From: Candidatus Bathyarchaeota archaeon
GTDB lineage: Archaea; Thermoproteota; Bathyarchaeia; TCS64
DNA: 64,000 nucleotides
Assembly: GCA_026014815.1 (NCBI GenBank)
Contig: JAOZHP010000076.1
Location: 7,250 to 71,249 of the forward strand
Direction: 5' to 3'
Part shown: one piece after another, positions 605-10,793 of the stretch
Numbering within the stretch: position 1 is the stretch's first letter
How the letters are laid out: each line of letters begins with the position of its first letter
The notes under the pieces: model-generated
What the model saw: the letters and a program-made list of their open reading frames with translations, nothing else
Told to the model about the DNA's origin: nothing
Database searches by the model: none
Made by a program: the position numbers and the translations under genes

Positions 605-1378
605 ATGATTGAGATGGAGTACAGTGAGATACCCGTAACGAAGATAAGTGGCTCAGGTAGGGTCACACTTCAAGGCTACGGGGACGTGAAGATTAGCGGG
701 TCAGGCAGCATAAGCCCGGAAAGAATACGGACGAGCGGCAGTAGCAAGCTACCGGGCGGCCTCAAGGTTGGGGACATCCATACAAGTGGCTCCACAACCG
801 TGGGAGGAAGCATCAGCGCTGACACCATGAAGTTCAGTGGATCAGCCACCATCGAGGGCGACGCAGAGTTCAAAGAACTAGATAAATCCGGTAGCATGAG
901 GATCGAAGGAACCGCTACAGGTGACATCATGGAGGTCTCAGGGAGCACCAAGATTGGCGGAAAACTCACGATCAAGAAAGAGTTGAGGTCCAGCGGCTCG
1001 ATACGAGTACATGGCGACATCGAGTCAGAAGGCCTCGTAAGATACAGCGGCACAATGGATACTCAGGGCAAGATAACAGCTAAAAGATTCGAGGCTCATC
1101 TGGGCCGTAGCGTGAGCCGCATCGACGGAGGCATCGAGGCCGAGTACATCGACGTCGAGTTATCACCGAGGGCATGGCGGGACGAGGGAGAACTCAAGAC
1201 AACTGACATCATCGGCGTCAAAGAGGTAACACTCGAAAACGTTAACTGCCATAACGTCCGAGGAGGCATCGTAGTCATCAAGGCGGGCTGCAAAGTCTCA
1301 GGCAAAGTCGAGTACACCGACAGTGTAGAGGTCAGCCCTAACGCATACCTAGAGAATCAGCCAGAAAAGATCGAGTAA
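605..1378 (+). CDS. Polymer-forming cytoskeletal (bactofilin-like, YhbE/YhbF-type) beta-helix protein
   Basis: Repeated (I/V)SGSxx(I/V)xG units along the protein; C-terminal GCKVSGKVEY; TTTAAA TATA-like box about 25 nt upstream. Confidence 0.7.
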   Translation: MIEMEYSEIPVTKISGSGRVTLQGYGDVKISGSGSISPERIRTSGSSKLPGGLKVGDIHTSGSTTVGGSISADTMKFSGSATIEGDAEFKELDKSGSMRIEGTATGDIMEVSGSTKIGGKLTIKKELRSSGSIRVHGDIESEGLVRYSGTMDTQGKITAKRFEAHLGRSVSRIDGGIEAEYIDVELSPRAWRDEGELKTTDIIGVKEVTLENVNCHNVRGGIVVIKAGCKVSGKVEYTDSVEVSPNAYLENQPEKIE

Positions 1379-3907: not shown

Positions 3908-5164
3908 TTACTTTGTCGTAAAGTACTCGGAGTAAGTGATGTTCCTCACCGTGCCGTCAGGGGCTTTTACACCCACCATGAGCCTCATCTTAACGTACCT
4001 CGGCCCGGTAACTATTAACGTATAATACCTTGTTTGCTGGAATTCTAGGTTGAATACCGTGCTCTCCTTGATACCGACTATGCTTTCATCGATGGCTTCC
4101 AGTCCTAGCCAGGCGCGGTACCCTTCAGCCGTTCTGGGACTCTCATTGGTCAGTGTCATGGTTACAGTGACCTTGTTGCTTCTTATCGAAGCCTCCCACT
4201 CATGGTTCAGGTAAGGCTCAGAGTCCACGATGTACAGGTTTACTTCCTCGTACTTGTGCTCCGATGGGACTTCACCTAGCTCCCAGCCTGTGGCCGTGGT
4301 TTCTAGGTAATAATACGTGCGGTTGTTCAGCAACCAATATGTTCCAGTGGCGTTTGCCTCCACGGCTACCGCCATATGGTTAGGCATGTAGATGAGGGCT
4401 GTGCTTACGTTCATGGCCTTCAGGAAGCTTGAATAGAGGATGGATGTGTCCTCGCAGTCTCCTCCACTGTCCACAAGGGTTTCCACGGGGAACTTGGGGT
4501 ACTCGTCAAAGCCGAGGGTGTCGTCTGTCTCGTAGTGGAGGTTTTGCACGAAACTTGTTACTAGGCCCAATCTCTCTTCTTCACCGTACTTGTTGAGGGC
4601 ACAGATTATCTCGAACTCGTTGAGCAGAGCCTCAATATACGCGTCATCGTATGGGTGCACCACGTAACCCGTGTAGTCAGATGTGCTGTACCGATCCTTT
4701 CCACTGTAATAATCAAGAAGTGGCTCCGGTACCGTGATGTTTACTGTATGCACTTGTGCGCCGTATTCCCACGTGTACTCTCGATGCAGGACAGGTAACG
4801 ACTCTGGGGATAAATCGAGTCCCCCGAAGGACGCCTCGTACTGGTCCAAGAGGGACTCGTACTGGCCCTGAAGCAACGCGTGCTGTTCAAGTAACGCCTC
4901 ATGCTCATCAAACAGTGACTCATACTGGCCTGTAATGTCTAGGTGGCTCTGGTTCAGCTCTGTGAGCTGTGTCTCAAGCCTTGTTTTCTCGGTGCCCTGT
5001 ACCTCGTGGTCGATGGTTAGCTGTTCATAGTCCATGGTAAGCTGGGATACATTATCTTCCAGCTCGATTATCCTCGGAGTAATTAAGTAGTTGTTGCCGA
5101 AGTACCCGGCTGCACCGCCCAGTATGATCCCAATGACGAGTAAGGCGAATGTCTTGGCGCTCAA
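3908..5164 (-). CDS. Membrane-anchored coiled-coil protein with a transglutaminase-like cysteine-protease domain
   Basis: N-terminal TM, heptad coiled coil (about aa 30-112), YPKFPVETLVDSGGDCED, NHMAVAV and YYYLETT (Cys-His-acidic triad pattern). Confidence 0.75.
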   Translation of the reverse strand: MSAKTFALLVIGIILGGAAGYFGNNYLITPRIIELEDNVSQLTMDYEQLTIDHEVQGTEKTRLETQLTELNQSHLDITGQYESLFDEHEALLEQHALLQGQYESLLDQYEASFGGLDLSPESLPVLHREYTWEYGAQVHTVNITVPEPLLDYYSGKDRYSTSDYTGYVVHPYDDAYIEALLNEFEIICALNKYGEEERLGLVTSFVQNLHYETDDTLGFDEYPKFPVETLVDSGGDCEDTSILYSSFLKAMNVSTALIYMPNHMAVAVEANATGTYWLLNNRTYYYLETTATGWELGEVPSEHKYEEVNLYIVDSEPYLNHEWEASIRSNKVTVTMTLTNESPRTAEGYRAWLGLEAIDESIVGIKESTVFNLEFQQTRYYTLIVTGPRYVKMRLMVGVKAPDGTVRNITYSEYFTTK

Positions 5165-5238: not shown

Positions 5239-5763
5239 TTACATACCGATGCCGGGGGTTCTATACCTTTTTTCCCACTCTTCCTTCATGACAATATTTC
5301 GTAGATCGGTGAGATGGTCGGTGCACATGACCCCGTGGAGGTGGTCGATCTCGTGCTGCAGGAGCTCACTCATGTCGTCGCTGAACTCCTCTATGTGCTT
5401 CCCGCCGTCCTCGTCCTTGTACTCGACCTTTATCGCTTTGTTTCGGCTAATCTTGACGAAGAACGCGGCGTTCAAGCTGAAGCAGCTATCCCAGACCATG
5501 AAAGTCTCGGGGCTCCTCCAAATGATGGCTGGGTTAACAAGGTAAAAGCTTCTTTCAGGCATCTGTATGTAGACCACTTTCTTAGGGTACCCGATCTGGG
5601 GCGCCGCCATGCCTCTGCCCATACCTTGCTCCTTCTGGATATGTGTTAACGTGTCCTTGAGGTCTTCAAGGATAAGTGCAAGTTCATCACTAAAGTTCAC
5701 TACTCCATGGGCTTCCTCCCTTAGCCGCGGGTCACCTAACAGAACAGTATCCCGTATAGTCAT
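5239..5763 (-). CDS. def: Peptide deformylase family protein
   Basis: GRGMAAPQIG (motif 1), DSCFS (EGCLS variant) and QHEIDHL (HExxH). Confidence 0.88.
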   Translation of the reverse strand: MTIRDTVLLGDPRLREEAHGVVNFSDELALILEDLKDTLTHIQKEQGMGRGMAAPQIGYPKKVVYIQMPERSFYLVNPAIIWRSPETFMVWDSCFSLNAAFFVKISRNKAIKVEYKDEDGGKHIEEFSDDMSELLQHEIDHLHGVMCTDHLTDLRNIVMKEEWEKRYRTPGIGM

Positions 5764-5866
5764 GATTCAATCTGTGTGACATAGTAAGGTAAATGTTTGT
5801 ATGTTCCTCCGAAAAAATGCGGTTCAATACCCTTTAGCGGTGAATTAAATCTGATTCCGGATATGG

Positions 5867-5986
5867 TTACTGCCCTGGTGGTGCTACGACTTCCTTATGC
5901 TCTTTCTTTATGATGATTTTTCCTCGCTTCAGCTTCCTTTTCTTAAAGCTGGGGAAGAGGTTCTCGTCTTTCTTCTCTGTCATCAT
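5867..5986 (-). CDS. 39-aa candidate Pup/UBact-like modifier peptide, C-terminus PPGQ
   Basis: Not in the ORF track. The ATG is 2 nt after the stop of the Dop-like gene. Sequence MMTEKKDENLFPSFKKRKLKRGKIIIKKEHKEVVAPPGQ*. Confidence 0.7.
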   Translation of the reverse strand: MMTEKKDENLFPSFKKRKLKRGKIIIKKEHKEVVAPPGQ

Positions 5987-5988
5987 TT

Positions 5989-7566
5989 TCACTCTGTGTC
6001 ATGTTTCTCGTGGTCGTCGCTGGGGGCGTACATCATGTGATCCCCCCTCTGGTTAAGCTTGTCGAGGGCCTTGGTGAACTCTGTGAAGGTGCCTGTCGCC
6101 TTCTCGAGGACATCCCCGCACATCTGTTTGTTGAAGATGAAAGGCTCATCCAGACGGATCGATGCGTTGTGAAAGTTGATGCTCTCCCACTCGATGGACT
6201 TGAGCAAGCCCGGGAACTCTCGTGCAGCGAGGCAACGGATGTACTCCCGTGTCCCCTCTGGGCCGTTATGTAACGCATGCTTCACCTTCCCCGTCAGAGC
6301 GTCCCAGTTCTCGAAGGGAATCGCGTCTCTCGCGAACTCCATGGAGTCATCGAGGCTGAACGTGGTTTCGTCCACTTCAACTGTTTCACCTATGTACCTG
6401 AGAACGGTCTCATCCAACAAGGTGTACTGGTTGCAGATGCCTAACCCTTCCTCGATGTCACCCTCAGCGTACTCGTCTATGAGCGTCTTCTTAGTGACCC
6501 AGTCCAGTCCGTCGATGAAGTACTCAAGGCTGCGCTCCTGAAGTCTCTGCACCGTGGCCTTGATGAGGTTGAAAGACCGTCTGTCCGCCTCGGTTGATTC
6601 TTCTCTGCTTAACATCTCCTCGACGCCTGCTAGGTAAAAGCCTTCGAGGATGTCTGCAACTGCGTCTACTCTTGTCCCATCCGCAAGGGTTAGCTTCCAG
6701 TTGAGAGCCTCAGTGTCGGTGGTCATCTCCTTCATGGAGGCAACAGGGTCATCCAGCTTGGGTGCGTCTTGATAGTAACCTTTCTCGTAAGCAGTCATAA
6801 CGAGGGTTTCAAGGTTATCCCTCAGGTAGATCTGGAAAGGGCTTCTGAGTCCTTCCCAGTTGATGTCGTGGAATCTCCAGTACTTCTCGGGGTCTGCGTG
6901 GGGGTCGTTCCTCTGGTTGAGGATGCCCCTAGCGTCCACGGTGTCGTTGCTTGAGACTCTTTTGATGAAGGCTGCACGTGGGCTGATTACGAAGCGAAGT
7001 GTTTCACCGTTCATTATCTTTCCGGGTCGGGGCAGCGAGCCGTCCCTCTTGCAGGGCACATAGTCGCCGCCACCGATTACGGGTATCCGTGCCACCATGA
7101 ATGGGACTAAGGCGTCCTCCATCTTGTCCCAGACATCTGGACCACACACACGTCGATCCATAAGGATGCTGCTGTGAGTGCTGTAGCTGTTTGCCCTCCA
7201 ACCATCGCCTTCCTTGATGTTGGAGACGTTGTTCTTGTACCCGTTTATACCCTTGAAGTAGCTCCTGAGGCCCTTCACGGCGTAGTAGCCGAACAGCTCG
7301 GCGACCCTGTCGTAGATGACGGCCTCCATGCTACTGTTGTAGCTGGGGCTTGAGAGTTCTAGGTGGCTCATGTCGTCGTAGACCCTGAATCCGTTGTAGG
7401 CCATATAGTCCAGTCGGGGCTCCTCGACCTTGATCCCAGTGACAAGCTCTGCCTTCCTAAGCTCCTCGATAGCCATTCCTACTAGGTGTATCAGTGACCT
7501 ATGGGGTAGCTGGGGCTGTGTGTTCATGGCTAGCTCGTGCTCGACTCCACGTATCTTGTGTTCCAT
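5989..7566 (-). CDS. Pup ligase/deamidase (PafA/Dop) family protein, Dop-like
   Basis: GVEHE (GxExE), NGFRVYDDMSHLE, YKNNV, NSYSTH, ISPRA and RGILNQRNDPHADPEKYWRFH resemble Dop NGARLYVDHAHPE and RGIINTRDEPHADxxxYRRLH. The likely ATG is at 7566 (the track starts at TTG 7602). Confidence 0.85.
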   Translation of the reverse strand: MEHKIRGVEHELAMNTQPQLPHRSLIHLVGMAIEELRKAELVTGIKVEEPRLDYMAYNGFRVYDDMSHLELSSPSYNSSMEAVIYDRVAELFGYYAVKGLRSYFKGINGYKNNVSNIKEGDGWRANSYSTHSSILMDRRVCGPDVWDKMEDALVPFMVARIPVIGGGDYVPCKRDGSLPRPGKIMNGETLRFVISPRAAFIKRVSSNDTVDARGILNQRNDPHADPEKYWRFHDINWEGLRSPFQIYLRDNLETLVMTAYEKGYYQDAPKLDDPVASMKEMTTDTEALNWKLTLADGTRVDAVADILEGFYLAGVEEMLSREESTEADRRSFNLIKATVQRLQERSLEYFIDGLDWVTKKTLIDEYAEGDIEEGLGICNQYTLLDETVLRYIGETVEVDETTFSLDDSMEFARDAIPFENWDALTGKVKHALHNGPEGTREYIRCLAAREFPGLLKSIEWESINFHNASIRLDEPFIFNKQMCGDVLEKATGTFTEFTKALDKLNQRGDHMMYAPSDDHEKHDTE

Positions 7567-7639
7567 CAAACCATGTGCCTCGAAAACAAGTCGCAATGCC
7601 AACTCTTGGGCAGGATACTCTATAATATTTGCTACAAGT

Positions 7640-8995
7640 TCAGCGGCTTGAGTCTATTAAGGATTGAATCTCAGCCGTTTTCGCCTTGATCTTTTTATTT
7701 GTCCATCCACCAAGCTCGTTGAACTCGAAAGGGTAGTAGTTTATCTCGGGTTTCAGCTTGATGTAGCTCCAGCTCATGGTCTTCAACTCGTCCTTGAACC
7801 GTTTGGCGAGAGCGACTCTTAGTGTTCCCCTGCTCTCACAGGGTGGGTCCATGAACGCCTTCTTGACGTTCTCTTCCGAGATTATGGTTCTCAGTCCGTG
7901 GCTCTCCACAAGTTCATCGTACAGCGGGTCAGTGACCGCTGTATACTGGTACATCGCTGCCTCTTTCGCTGCATCCATGCTTAGACCCTCCTCCACGATG
8001 TACTCGTCCAGCACTTTCTCTGTGAGCCTCATCTTGATGACCCACTCGATGGATGTGTCCAAGGATTCAATCAATCCCTCATCGAGCTTCCCGAGAACCC
8101 ACTTGAACTCACGAAGAGCCATCAGGTCGTGATCCGCAGGGCTTCCATCAGCGAAGACACGTTCAATCGCCTCAAGATAATGGGAGTTGAGGTAATCAAT
8201 GACCCTTATCTCAGCGCCCTCCTTCAAAGGGACAGTCCAGTCTCCGTCGAGGCTCAGTGAGATCGCTTTGTTGGACTCGATTGGAGCCTCTATCTCGGGC
8301 ACCGATGTGAGGTGTCCTTGCTCGATTGCCCTGAGGATATAGCTGGTGATGCTGTGCTTCAGGAACGTTGTTACCTCAGAACGGGCTCCCTCCCCATTCA
8401 CGATGTGGGCGCGACTGAAAACGTCGTCTGTGTGGGACTCGTCACGTGTGCTGATAATCGGGTAATCGGTGCTGGTCTCCGAGTACAGGGTCTTGGGGAA
8501 AATTGTTCGAGGAGAGACGAGGTATCTCCCGTTCACGTATCCACCTGCACCGCAGAAGACCTGCCTCAAAACGAGGTAAGGTATGAGAAGATGAATGTTC
8601 TCAACGTACTTTTCCCGTTTGACGAGGTAGTTCTCGTGGCTCCCAACGGTCGTGTAGGGTACCTCTCCTTTGGGGTCAGTGGCTATGTTGGTCTTGTAGA
8701 GGTGGACTTGTTCACCTGTGTCTTCTTGGTAGGTCCATGAGGCTAGTCGGGCGTACGCCTCACACGCTTTTTCATAAGCCAACATCTCCAAGGGGTTCCT
8801 ACACTCGGGGGTGCAGACCTCGAAGAGGTTGCCGTGGATGTAGCAGAGGCCACCGTTTCTGAGAAAAGCCCGTGGGATGCCGTCGTCTGGCTTGAAGACG
8901 TAGACCCCTCGTTTGCCGAGGGCCTCAAAGAGCCCCATGGGCCATGAACCTGCGGCGAACTCTTGTTCTGCTCCCTGCCACATATTTAGAGACAA
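7640..8995 (-). CDS. Pup ligase/deamidase (PafA/Dop) family protein, PafA-like with divergent active-site strand
   Basis: GAEQEF, FLRNGG..Y..E..TPEC, LYKTN, GSHENYL, RQVFCGAG, PIISTRDESH, RAHIVNGE and IEWVIK motifs. Confidence 0.85.
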   Translation of the reverse strand: MSLNMWQGAEQEFAAGSWPMGLFEALGKRGVYVFKPDDGIPRAFLRNGGLCYIHGNLFEVCTPECRNPLEMLAYEKACEAYARLASWTYQEDTGEQVHLYKTNIATDPKGEVPYTTVGSHENYLVKREKYVENIHLLIPYLVLRQVFCGAGGYVNGRYLVSPRTIFPKTLYSETSTDYPIISTRDESHTDDVFSRAHIVNGEGARSEVTTFLKHSITSYILRAIEQGHLTSVPEIEAPIESNKAISLSLDGDWTVPLKEGAEIRVIDYLNSHYLEAIERVFADGSPADHDLMALREFKWVLGKLDEGLIESLDTSIEWVIKMRLTEKVLDEYIVEEGLSMDAAKEAAMYQYTAVTDPLYDELVESHGLRTIISEENVKKAFMDPPCESRGTLRVALAKRFKDELKTMSWSYIKLKPEINYYPFEFNELGGWTNKKIKAKTAEIQSLIDSSR

Positions 8996-9083: not shown

Positions 9084-10793
9084 TTGATTTTTATGGCGAT
9101 TCCAGATGAACTGTACGCCGACCTCGCCCTCATCAACGGAAAGATTGCGACTATTGACAAGGATGACACAGTCGCTGAGGCCGTCGCGTGCAAAGGAGAA
9201 AAGATAATCAAAGTAGGCACCACCGAGGAGGTCAAAGCCTACATAGGAAAACATACACAGGTCATCGACCTCAAAGGTAAACTGGTAACCCCCGGCTTCG
9301 TGGACACCCACGCCCACTTCAGCAGCGGAGGCAGACGAGTCAGGACCGTTGACCTTCGTTACGTCAGGTCTATGGATGCTCTCATCGAGGAGCTGCGGAA
9401 GAAAGCTGAGACATTCCCCAAAGGCCGCTGGATACAGGGATGGGGATACAACGAGTCCAAGCTCAAGGAGAAACGGTTCCCCAACAGGTATGATCTCGAC
9501 AAGGCATCCACTGATCACCCAATATCAATTACAAGACAGGGAGGCCACGACGGGATACGAGTCAACAGTCTAGCATTAGAGCTAGCAGGCATCAGCAAAG
9601 ACACACCTGATCCTGAGCCACCTTCATTCATCCATCGTGACCCCGAGACCGGTGAACCCCTCGGCAACCTCCGTGAGGAGGGAGCGAAGCCTGTGCTTGA
9701 GCTAATAGCACTGGAACCCGTTCTAACGAAGGAGGAGATGAAGGAGGGGCTCAAGAACGCCATCAAGATGTTCCTTTCATTGGGCATCACGAGCCTTCAG
9801 GAGCCGGGCGCTCCAATGGACTTTTTACCCATGTATCAGGAGCTGCTTAATGAGGGTGAGTTCCACATAAGGAACAGCTTCCTCATAGCCGCGCCAATAT
9901 TGGGTCGTTCTTATCACAGGAACGAGCGGTACCAGTTGGCCACTGATCTCAGCGTCGAGGCAGGGTACATGACCCACTTCGGGGACAATCACCTCAAATT
10001 CGCGGGCATCAAGCTGGGACACGACGGCAGCATGAGTGCGGGTAACTGCGCTGTCTACGAGCCGTACCTCAACTACCCGACTCCAGATAACTATGGCGTT
10101 GTCCACGGGTACACCAACGAGGAGCTCAACGATGGACGCGCCCTCGCAGAGTTCGCCCCAATCGTCGTCAAGCTCCACAAGGCCGGTATGCGTAGCGGTT
10201 TAGGTGCTATTGGAGACAGAGGAATCGATTTCTTCCTAGACTCCGTCGAGGCCGCGTACAACGAGGACCCTAGGCCCGACAGCAGGCACAGCATAGAGCA
10301 CTGCAGCCTCCCAACACAGGCAGCGCTTGAACGGATGAAGAGGCTGGACGTGACCAGCTCAACCTCCGTAGGCTTCGGGTGGGAGCTAGGAGACCAGCAC
10401 AGAGGATTCATGGGTATGGAACGGATGAAGCGATACATGCCTATGAAAAGCTTCAAGGAGATGGGCATCGTGGCAAGCGGAAACGCTGACTGGCCTGTGT
10501 GTTCAGCGAACATCATGGAGGGTATACATGTCTGCGTCAACAGGACCAGCGAGACAGGGCAGGACCTGGGGCAGAGCCAAGCCATCAGCGTCATGGACGC
10601 GATAAGAGTCTACACATGGAACGGCGCCTACATCACCTTCGAGGAGGACATCAAGGGCAGCATCGAGCATGGTAAACTCGCAGACTTTGCTGTGCTAGAC
10701 ACCGATATACTGACCTGTGACCCCGCTGACATTGTCAAGACCAAGGTACTCACAACCATCGTTGACGGAAAAGTCGTCTACCAGATGGAGTGA
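9084..10793 (+). CDS. Amidohydrolase family 3 (YtcJ-like) metal-dependent hydrolase
   Basis: PGFVDTHAH, IGDRG, RHSIEH and GSIEHGKLADFAVL motifs. Confidence 0.9.
   Translation: MIFMAIPDELYADLALINGKIATIDKDDTVAEAVACKGEKIIKVGTTEEVKAYIGKHTQVIDLKGKLVTPGFVDTHAHFSSGGRRVRTVDLRYVRSMDALIEELRKKAETFPKGRWIQGWGYNESKLKEKRFPNRYDLDKASTDHPISITRQGGHDGIRVNSLALELAGISKDTPDPEPPSFIHRDPETGEPLGNLREEGAKPVLELIALEPVLTKEEMKEGLKNAIKMFLSLGITSLQEPGAPMDFLPMYQELLNEGEFHIRNSFLIAAPILGRSYHRNERYQLATDLSVEAGYMTHFGDNHLKFAGIKLGHDGSMSAGNCAVYEPYLNYPTPDNYGVVHGYTNEELNDGRALAEFAPIVVKLHKAGMRSGLGAIGDRGIDFFLDSVEAAYNEDPRPDSRHSIEHCSLPTQAALERMKRLDVTSSTSVGFGWELGDQHRGFMGMERMKRYMPMKSFKEMGIVASGNADWPVCSANIMEGIHVCVNRTSETGQDLGQSQAISVMDAIRVYTWNGAYITFEEDIKGSIEHGKLADFAVLDTDILTCDPADIVKTKVLTTIVDGKVVYQME

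Follow-up and report, generated by a model that had tools for sequence, protein, structure and literature searches.

In a sediment archaeon of the Bathyarchaeia, a small ORF on the minus strand, located directly behind two tandem Pup-ligase genes, probably encodes the tag for a Pup-like system of protein conjugation. The system would comprise this tag and the two enzymes, hereafter paralogues A and B. Because the small protein has no sequence or profile similarity to Pup, the analogy is drawn from genomic context, from a terminal G[QE] and from a model. The tag of such a three-gene module would be unrelated to Pup, much shorter and oppositely charged. The DNA analysed, referred to as the window, spans 64,000 nucleotides, and its features of interest are as follows.

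5867..5986, minus strand: small ORF, candidate Pup-like tag, 39 aa from the first ATG, ending PPGQ
5989..7602, minus strand: paralogue B (P0002), 537 aa, putative deamidase/de-tagging enzyme or ligase, PF03136 E 4.6e-48
7640..8995, minus strand: paralogue A (P0003), 451 aa, putative tag ligase, PF03136 E 3.2e-69
5812..5817, minus strand: T6 run read from the sequence, a possible archaeal terminator that may close the three-gene unit
5239-5763, minus strand: peptide deformylase homologue directly downstream of the candidate tag gene, PF01327 E 3e-35
3908-5164, minus strand: coiled-coil protein with a transglutaminase-like domain, DUF553 E 8e-5
605-1375, plus strand: bactofilin-domain protein, PF04519 E 4e-8
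9084-10793, plus strand: Amidohydro_3 protein, divergent, upstream of paralogue A, 72-88% identical across many related loci

The small ORF and its family

The small ORF ends in a TAA stop at 5867-5869 and has its first ATG at 5986, with 2 nt between the paralogue B gene and this start. An alternative start, the GTG at 5992, overlaps with the TGA that ends the upstream gene and would lengthen the product to 41 aa, and a second ATG, at 5983, would give 38 aa. Since the ATG, TTG or GTG starts of the orthologues align with this second ATG, the product is probably 38 aa long. The T6 run lies about 50 nt past the stop and is followed by the peptide deformylase gene. The peptide contains 10 K, 2 R, 1 D and 4 E, for a net charge of +7 and a pI of 10.2. 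We re-read in the sequence what an earlier note on this DNA had reported, namely a strongly basic ORF of 39 aa with 10 Lys and 2 Arg against 5 acidic residues and a PPGQ end, and found all of it as given.

A possibility was that an ORF of this kind is non-functional, having arisen by chance or reflecting a nucleotide element that is itself conserved, for example the 3' end of an operon. Its very short length spoke for this, as did the lack of a call in the protein set of its own genome, the closest called protein being 87% identical and none 100%. Substitution patterns and conservation argued against it. Among 10 same-length orthologues (45 pairs), pS was 0.70 and pN 0.17, that is, a pN/pS of 0.25 in the small-ORF frame, whereas the remaining five frames gave 0.35-1.72. 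At the three codon positions, 19, 18 and 34 of 37 sites were variable, third positions thus varying at 34/37 codons, and the last ten codons gave a pS of 0.79 for a pN of 0.09. All 10 orthologues were open in the small-ORF frame, with stops recurring in other frames: two of the other five were hit in 10/10 orthologues and a third in 8/10. The start codon was also kept at the same aligned position. Frame-specific substitution together with the open frames indicated that the small ORF is a protein-coding gene under purifying selection, and we give the non-functional alternative a negligible probability.

The earlier note had suggested a scan behind dop-like genes as a check of the C-terminus. 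We searched for ORFs of at least 20 codons ending in GQ-stop or GE-stop and located at most 260 nt downstream of paralogue B. Such an ORF was found directly behind paralogue B in 17/17 evaluable loci (14 distinct contigs, window included), a count that leaves aside L002, whose contig ends 13 nt after gene B, and L039, whose letters there are N. A second archaeal family (f44) had one G[QE]-stop ORF on the right strand in 10/10 downstream regions, some with a variant tail beyond the reach of the degenerate motif scan described below. Overall, the terminal G[Q/E] was kept in 24/24 evaluable enzyme-anchored archaeal loci, and this conservation likewise speaks against a non-functional ORF. At bacterial loci, a version of 54-58 aa ending in Q was placed before the enzyme pair in 2/2 cases.

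In an alignment of 22 members of the tag family, a variable N-terminal part was followed by an [LF]PSF-K motif and then by a basic central portion; the tail was almost invariant and read K-E-H-x-E-[VI]-[VI]-A-P-[PS]-G-[QE]. Within these 22 sequences, lysine K15 was invariant and K27 was present in at least 90%. The last residue of 40 distinct tails was E in 25 and Q in 15, with nothing else seen and G always preceding; this set was partly motif-selected, and the enzyme-anchored sets, sought only for G[QE]-stop, gave the same tail. Length ranged from 27 to 47 aa in archaea and from 51 to 58 aa in the bacterial members. The pI values of the family were 9.0-10.3, as compared with 4.2-4.3 in three canonical Pups. 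The KRKLKR patch was specific to the window's clade and was missing from a 27-aa variant, and the Methanomethylicia-type tags, 31-33 aa long and all ending in E, had a net charge of only +2. Forms of 31-33 aa ending in PPGE and forms ending in SGE were both found.

The degenerate-motif DNA scan covered 185,579 species genomes and returned 40 stretches, of which 23 were tag-family ORFs. A Pup-ligase homologue was present at the same locus for 22 of these 23 ORFs and on the same contig for the 23rd. The hosts were Bathyarchaeia, Methanomethylicia-type archaea, and MAGs labelled Thermodesulfobacteriota or 'delta proteobacterium'. The other 17 stretches were chance matches, lying inside unrelated ORFs or having TGG next, and were rejected.

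At the protein level, a profile of the family searched against 1.84 billion representative proteins yielded 8 matches (E<=0.001), all of 27-51 aa and all with this tail. Since every match was small and carried the same tail, there were no fused forms and no bridge to Pup among them. The ESM Atlas gave no usable match for the small protein. Called proteins of the family fell into 11 clusters of 38-47 aa, annotated at most as 'hypothetical protein' (JGI, ENA, Logan), none of them from NCBI and none identical to the window's copy. This bears on the claim of a new modifier class missed by gene callers. The second half of the claim goes too far, as the 11 clusters exist. A new modifier class is nonetheless the best reading of a product that is conserved and linked to the enzymes, ends in G-Q or G-E, is without likeness to Pup, and is shorter and basic.

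The two enzymes and a model of the complex

The two genes upstream of the small ORF lie in tandem on the same strand and both belong to the Pup_ligase family (PF03136), scoring 234 and 165 bits where the cut-off is 25. With the NCBIfam equivalogs for PafA and Dop (TIGR03686, TIGR03688), scores were 97-192 bits, that is, below the cut-offs of 492 and 551. A quick tree of 30 rows, with long branches and only 4 canonical sequences, gave three separate clades: A (SH-aLRT 99), B (100) and canonical PafA plus Dop (100). It included 13 of 16 A rows and 11 of 15 B rows, plus L046. We had considered that A might be PafA and B Dop by orthology, and rejected this on the three separate clades of the quick tree (4 canonical sequences). 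The roles of PafA and Dop are therefore not transferable to A and B by orthology.

Residues were mapped with HMMER alignments to Dop 4b0r, using the roles named in the accessible part of PMC8599861, where the Mg ligands of Dop are E8, E10, Y92, E99, H155 and H241. In paralogue B, R73, Y75, D77, E82, H143, R231 and H245 corresponded to Dop R90, Y92, D94, E99, H155, R227 and H241, and all seven were invariant in 15/15 B paralogues. E21 and E23 of a GxExE motif were likewise invariant in the 15 B paralogues; we equated them with Dop E8 and E10 by motif, the alignment to Dop being printed from residue 84 onwards. In paralogue B, the 'HENY' motif has become 'HSSI', with loss of the Glu. Counterparts of the Mg ligands and of R227 were found in both A and B, the H241 equivalent being Q in some distant A paralogues; in A, too, the E8/E10 pair was matched through the GxExE motif and the other residues through the alignment.

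The two enzymes differed at the catalytic Asp (Dop D94) and at R90. Both residues are kept in B (R73 and D77, 15/15), whereas both are absent in A of the window's clade, where R90 reads L50, Y92 reads Y52 and D94 reads H54, with a 9-residue deletion. Across A paralogues, the D94 position was His in 26/32 and Asp in 6/32; the six distant A paralogues, from other archaea and from bacteria, retain [RK]-x-Y-x-D. Because the His is fixed within the window's clade, the active site of A seems to have been altered and not to be decaying. The chemistry or the acceptor of A in this clade may thus differ, as it lacks both the Asp and the R90 equivalent. B would be the better candidate for Dop-type chemistry, while A binds the tag in the model described below but with a His-variant site. 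The Dop-loop, a mark of Dop, comprises 40-65 residues before strand beta2. There was no insert at this position in the window's B, and a 12-residue insert with a conserved Trp was present in L034, L037, L038 and L009; this insert of four distant B paralogues may correspond to the Dop-loop.

We then modelled paralogue A (alignment of 32 rows) together with the 39-aa tag (22 rows), a docking check that the earlier note had put forward and that was run here for paralogue A. The model reached an ipSAE of 0.83 (runs 0.81, 0.83 and 0.85), whereas unrelated 39-mers used as controls gave 0.00-0.01, the best of 3 controls being 0.01. The mark of A plus tag was reached by 58/80 solved complexes and by 2/110 mismatched pairs. 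At least 90% of contacts agreed between runs, and the pLDDT of the partner was 68-72. The tail was placed at the catalytic centre: tag residues 23-39 all touched A, and the interface included E12, H54-57 and H120 of A. As for single residues of the tag, F11 and P12 were located between residues 80-87 and 377-382 of A, and I26, K27, H30 and V33 on helices 334-358. Both enzymes are acidic (pI 5.0-5.1), and binding to them could account for the conserved tag lysines that the model places in the interface. The earlier note had supposed that the many lysines might allow chains to form and that the basic patch might bind nucleic acid or an acidic receptor. Solved PafA-Pup and Dop-Pup complexes exist, and the ipSAE may consequently reflect in part remembered enzyme structures. 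Against such a memory effect stand the lack of likeness between the tag and Pup and the values of 0.00-0.01 obtained with unrelated 39-mers. On its own, the tag was predicted as a low-confidence coil (pLDDT 62.6, pTM 0.14), which is compatible with a peptide that would be mostly coil and disordered when free.

Proposed function, related modifiers and rival readings

The analogy with Pup suggests the following scheme. The tag, disordered when alone, would insert its conserved LFPSF motif and its C-terminal half in the groove of an enzyme of the Pup-ligase fold, bringing its terminal residue to the Mg/ATP centre. Gln-ended tags, such as that of the window, would first be deamidated to Glu by one of the paralogues, most likely B, in which no residue of the Dop-type catalytic set is missing. 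ATP would next phosphorylate the terminal Glu at its gamma-carboxylate, this group would be linked to a lysine amine on a target protein, and one paralogue could reverse the tagging. Deamidation, lysine ligation, the assignment of these steps to the two paralogues and the fate of tagged proteins are what we infer from the analogy.

How close does this come to pupylation? Pup is described in the accessible part of PMC2588565 as a protein of 50-90 aa with a G[EQ] end, and in that of PMC12288473 as intrinsically disordered. The archaeal tag resembles it in being small and apparently disordered, in ending with G-[Q/E] and nothing after (the sole odd case being the possibly decayed locus L080, described below, with TGG for the stop), and in having its gene beside two paralogous PF03136 enzymes. 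Its Q/E alternation would imply deamidation, as in Pup, and in the model the enzyme groove holds its C-terminal half, while its last residue reaches the ligase active site, at the Mg/ATP position. The differences are the following. The tag is 27-47 aa long in archaea and basic, with a pI of at least 9.0 rather than an acidic one, its tail is APPG[QE] and not GG[QE], and its hosts are archaeal. On the enzyme side, A and B group apart from PafA plus Dop, each in a clade of its own, and A of the window's clade has His for the catalytic Asp.

There was also no likeness in sequence. Searches of Pfam and NCBIfam with 6 members of the tag family returned nothing at E<=10, bar one unrelated weak match; the family thus falls outside Pup as defined by the profiles PF05639 and TIGR03687. 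PF05639 had no match at E<=10 in a six-frame translation of the window's genome. Finally, hhalign of the 22 tag-family members against 20 canonical Pups gave a probability of 0.06% and an E of 0.78. The view that only the terminal G[Q/E] is shared with Pup, and that the tag is shorter than Pup and basic instead of acidic, is in line with these results. By eye, the tails of Pup and of the mini-tag both have two hydrophobic residues at -6 and -5, which is an observation and no evidence of homology.

Other modifiers are instructive as well. UBact is a Pup-like tag of some Gram-negative phyla that ends in Q or E and adjoins PafA/Dop homologues; it has been reported from bacteria, not archaea. As judged from the description of UBact and not from its sequences, the present tag is alike in ending with Q or E outside Actinobacteria beside PafA/Dop homologues. 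LysW is an amino-group carrier whose C-terminal Glu is ligated through its gamma-carboxylate to an amine in an ATP-dependent manner, with an ATP-grasp enzyme and a gene located among lysine/arginine biosynthesis genes. No lysine/arginine biosynthesis genes are conserved beside the module, unlike LysW, and the combination of amino-acid biosynthesis genes with an ATP-grasp ligase nearby was not found. SAMPs and Urm1-type modifiers have a beta-grasp fold, a Gly-Gly end and E1-like adenylation (accessible part of PMC2948915). Like SAMPs, the tag would be a small archaeal protein joined to lysines via its C-terminus, as we propose; it differs from them in its disorder and in its expected chemistry, as enzymes of the glutamine-synthetase fold would act on the side chain of its terminal Glu/Gln.

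The LysW comparison leads to a rival reading, in which the peptide is a carrier or scaffold whose terminal Glu is joined to a small-molecule amine or to an amino acid, as in LysW or in the precursor of a ribosomal peptide. The enzyme fold would allow it, as the PafA family shares its carboxylate-amine ligase fold with glutamine synthetase and gamma-glutamyl-cysteine ligase (accessible part of PMC2588565). Having lost the canonical Asp and Arg, A of the window's clade could act on another acceptor, and no degradation machinery is linked to the module. However, no biosynthetic genes are conserved beside it in Bathyarchaeia, in the second archaeal family or in bacteria, the Q/E alternation and the two paralogues reproduce the logic of Pup, Dop and PafA, and the peptide is conserved over about 30 residues and not at its tip alone. 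We consider a carrier unlikely. In a further alternative, the peptide is never conjugated and is a non-covalent partner that sits in the groove of A and/or B, either as a regulatory subunit or as an inhibitor mimicking the substrate. The complex model shows binding only, and the conserved lysines of the modelled interface would face acidic enzymes, two points that suit such a partner. Yet both enzymes keep their Mg ligands and B its catalytic residues, and the last position is strictly G[QE], which is more than binding requires and fits the needs of a terminal residue that reacts. This second alternative appears very improbable to us.

A conjugated tag of a Pup-like module hence remains our preferred reading, and a more specific version of it can be put forward tentatively, at somewhat less than even odds. 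The module might represent a separate Pup-type branch, found in Bathyarchaeia, in a Methanomethylicia-type family and in a few Desulfobacterota, with a basic APPG[QE] mini-tag of 27-39 aa, joined through its terminal Glu to protein lysines by its own A/B pair. In the window's clade, the ligase would work with His where the catalytic Asp is otherwise universal. Tagged proteins might be recognised by a reader other than Mpa, for instance an unfoldase of the Cdc48 type acting with the 20S proteasome; alternatively, the basic tag itself might alter their binding.

Pupylation is treated as a bacterial invention (Iyer 2008; 2025 minireview PMC12288473, accessible parts), and Pup, PafA and Dop are recorded from Actinobacteria and, sporadically, from Nitrospirae, Verrucomicrobia, Deltaproteobacteria and Planctomycetes (accessible part of PMC2588565). 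Archaea are credited only with beta-grasp modifiers in the accessible portions of the literature searched. These same portions reported no Pup-ligase system and no such tag for archaea, and supplements (e.g. Additional file 1 of PMC2588565) could hold unusual Pups. If our reading is true, Pup-type chemistry extends to archaea, and one tag can give way to another with no change of enzyme fold or of the G[Q/E] ending. A natural minimal tag of about 30 residues would also become available, together with a His-variant ligase, and could interest those who develop proximity labelling based on PafA. The module also offers a direct experiment on protein marking in uncultured sediment archaea.

Neighbourhood and distribution of the module

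Only A, B and the small ORF recurred across clades. Amidohydrolase, peptide deformylase, transglutaminase-like or 2-oxoacid:ferredoxin oxidoreductase genes neighboured the module, none of them in all clades. In the window and five other loci, there was no linked proteasome, unfoldase, Mpa/ARC or PAN gene, which is another difference from Pup as regards Mpa and the proteasome. Elsewhere in the genome, we found four PF00227 matches (20S subunits) and a 736-aa frame with two AAA matches, labelled Cdc48-like. For PAN, there was no score above the cut-off in the window's genome.

Several neighbours deserve mention. On 8 further contigs, all distinct, a copy of the peptide deformylase (61-70% identical) lay behind the module; counting the window and duplicate loci, tblastn gave 12 rows. 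The Amidohydro_3 neighbour was more conserved (72-88%) than the module's own enzymes (56-74%), and its gene was absent beside the module in the other archaeal family and in bacteria. A 2-oxoacid:ferredoxin oxidoreductase operon (POR_N, PFOR_II, TPP_enzyme_C, Fer4) adjoined the module at three loci from distant clades (L046:5462-7981, L069:1519-4973 and L070:4857-7425); at one of the three, it lay on the opposite strand. A single Methanomethylicales MAG had an IS605 OrfB/TnpB-type gene with a Cas12f1-like TNB domain in the place of A (L044:2506-3606, plus strand), and paralogue A of the same MAG was located on another contig (G599, contigs C7 and C20).

The enzyme family had a patchy distribution. 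PF03136 was present in 20/401 sampled genomes of the class, including 16/70 in family f1, and in 14/401 genomes of the phylum sample, including 12/32 genomes of family f44. It occurred as two matches per genome, save in a few incomplete or fragmented genomes.

One locus, L080 (L080:3976-4329), showed a clean deletion of about 2.8 kb relative to L047 that takes out paralogue A and most of B. In its small ORF, TGG replaces the stop codon and the frame continues for 20 more codons. This may reflect decay after enzyme loss or an assembly artefact; it is a single anecdote, consistent with a joint function of the enzymes and the tag. Lastly, records titled 'Patescibacteria group bacterium' and 'Promethearchaeota archaeon' (L043; P0123; P0073) carried module genes 58-66% identical to the window's paralogue A. 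The tag of L043 was identical to that of L032, a locus of the Bathyarchaeia class, and these contigs were probably mis-binned.
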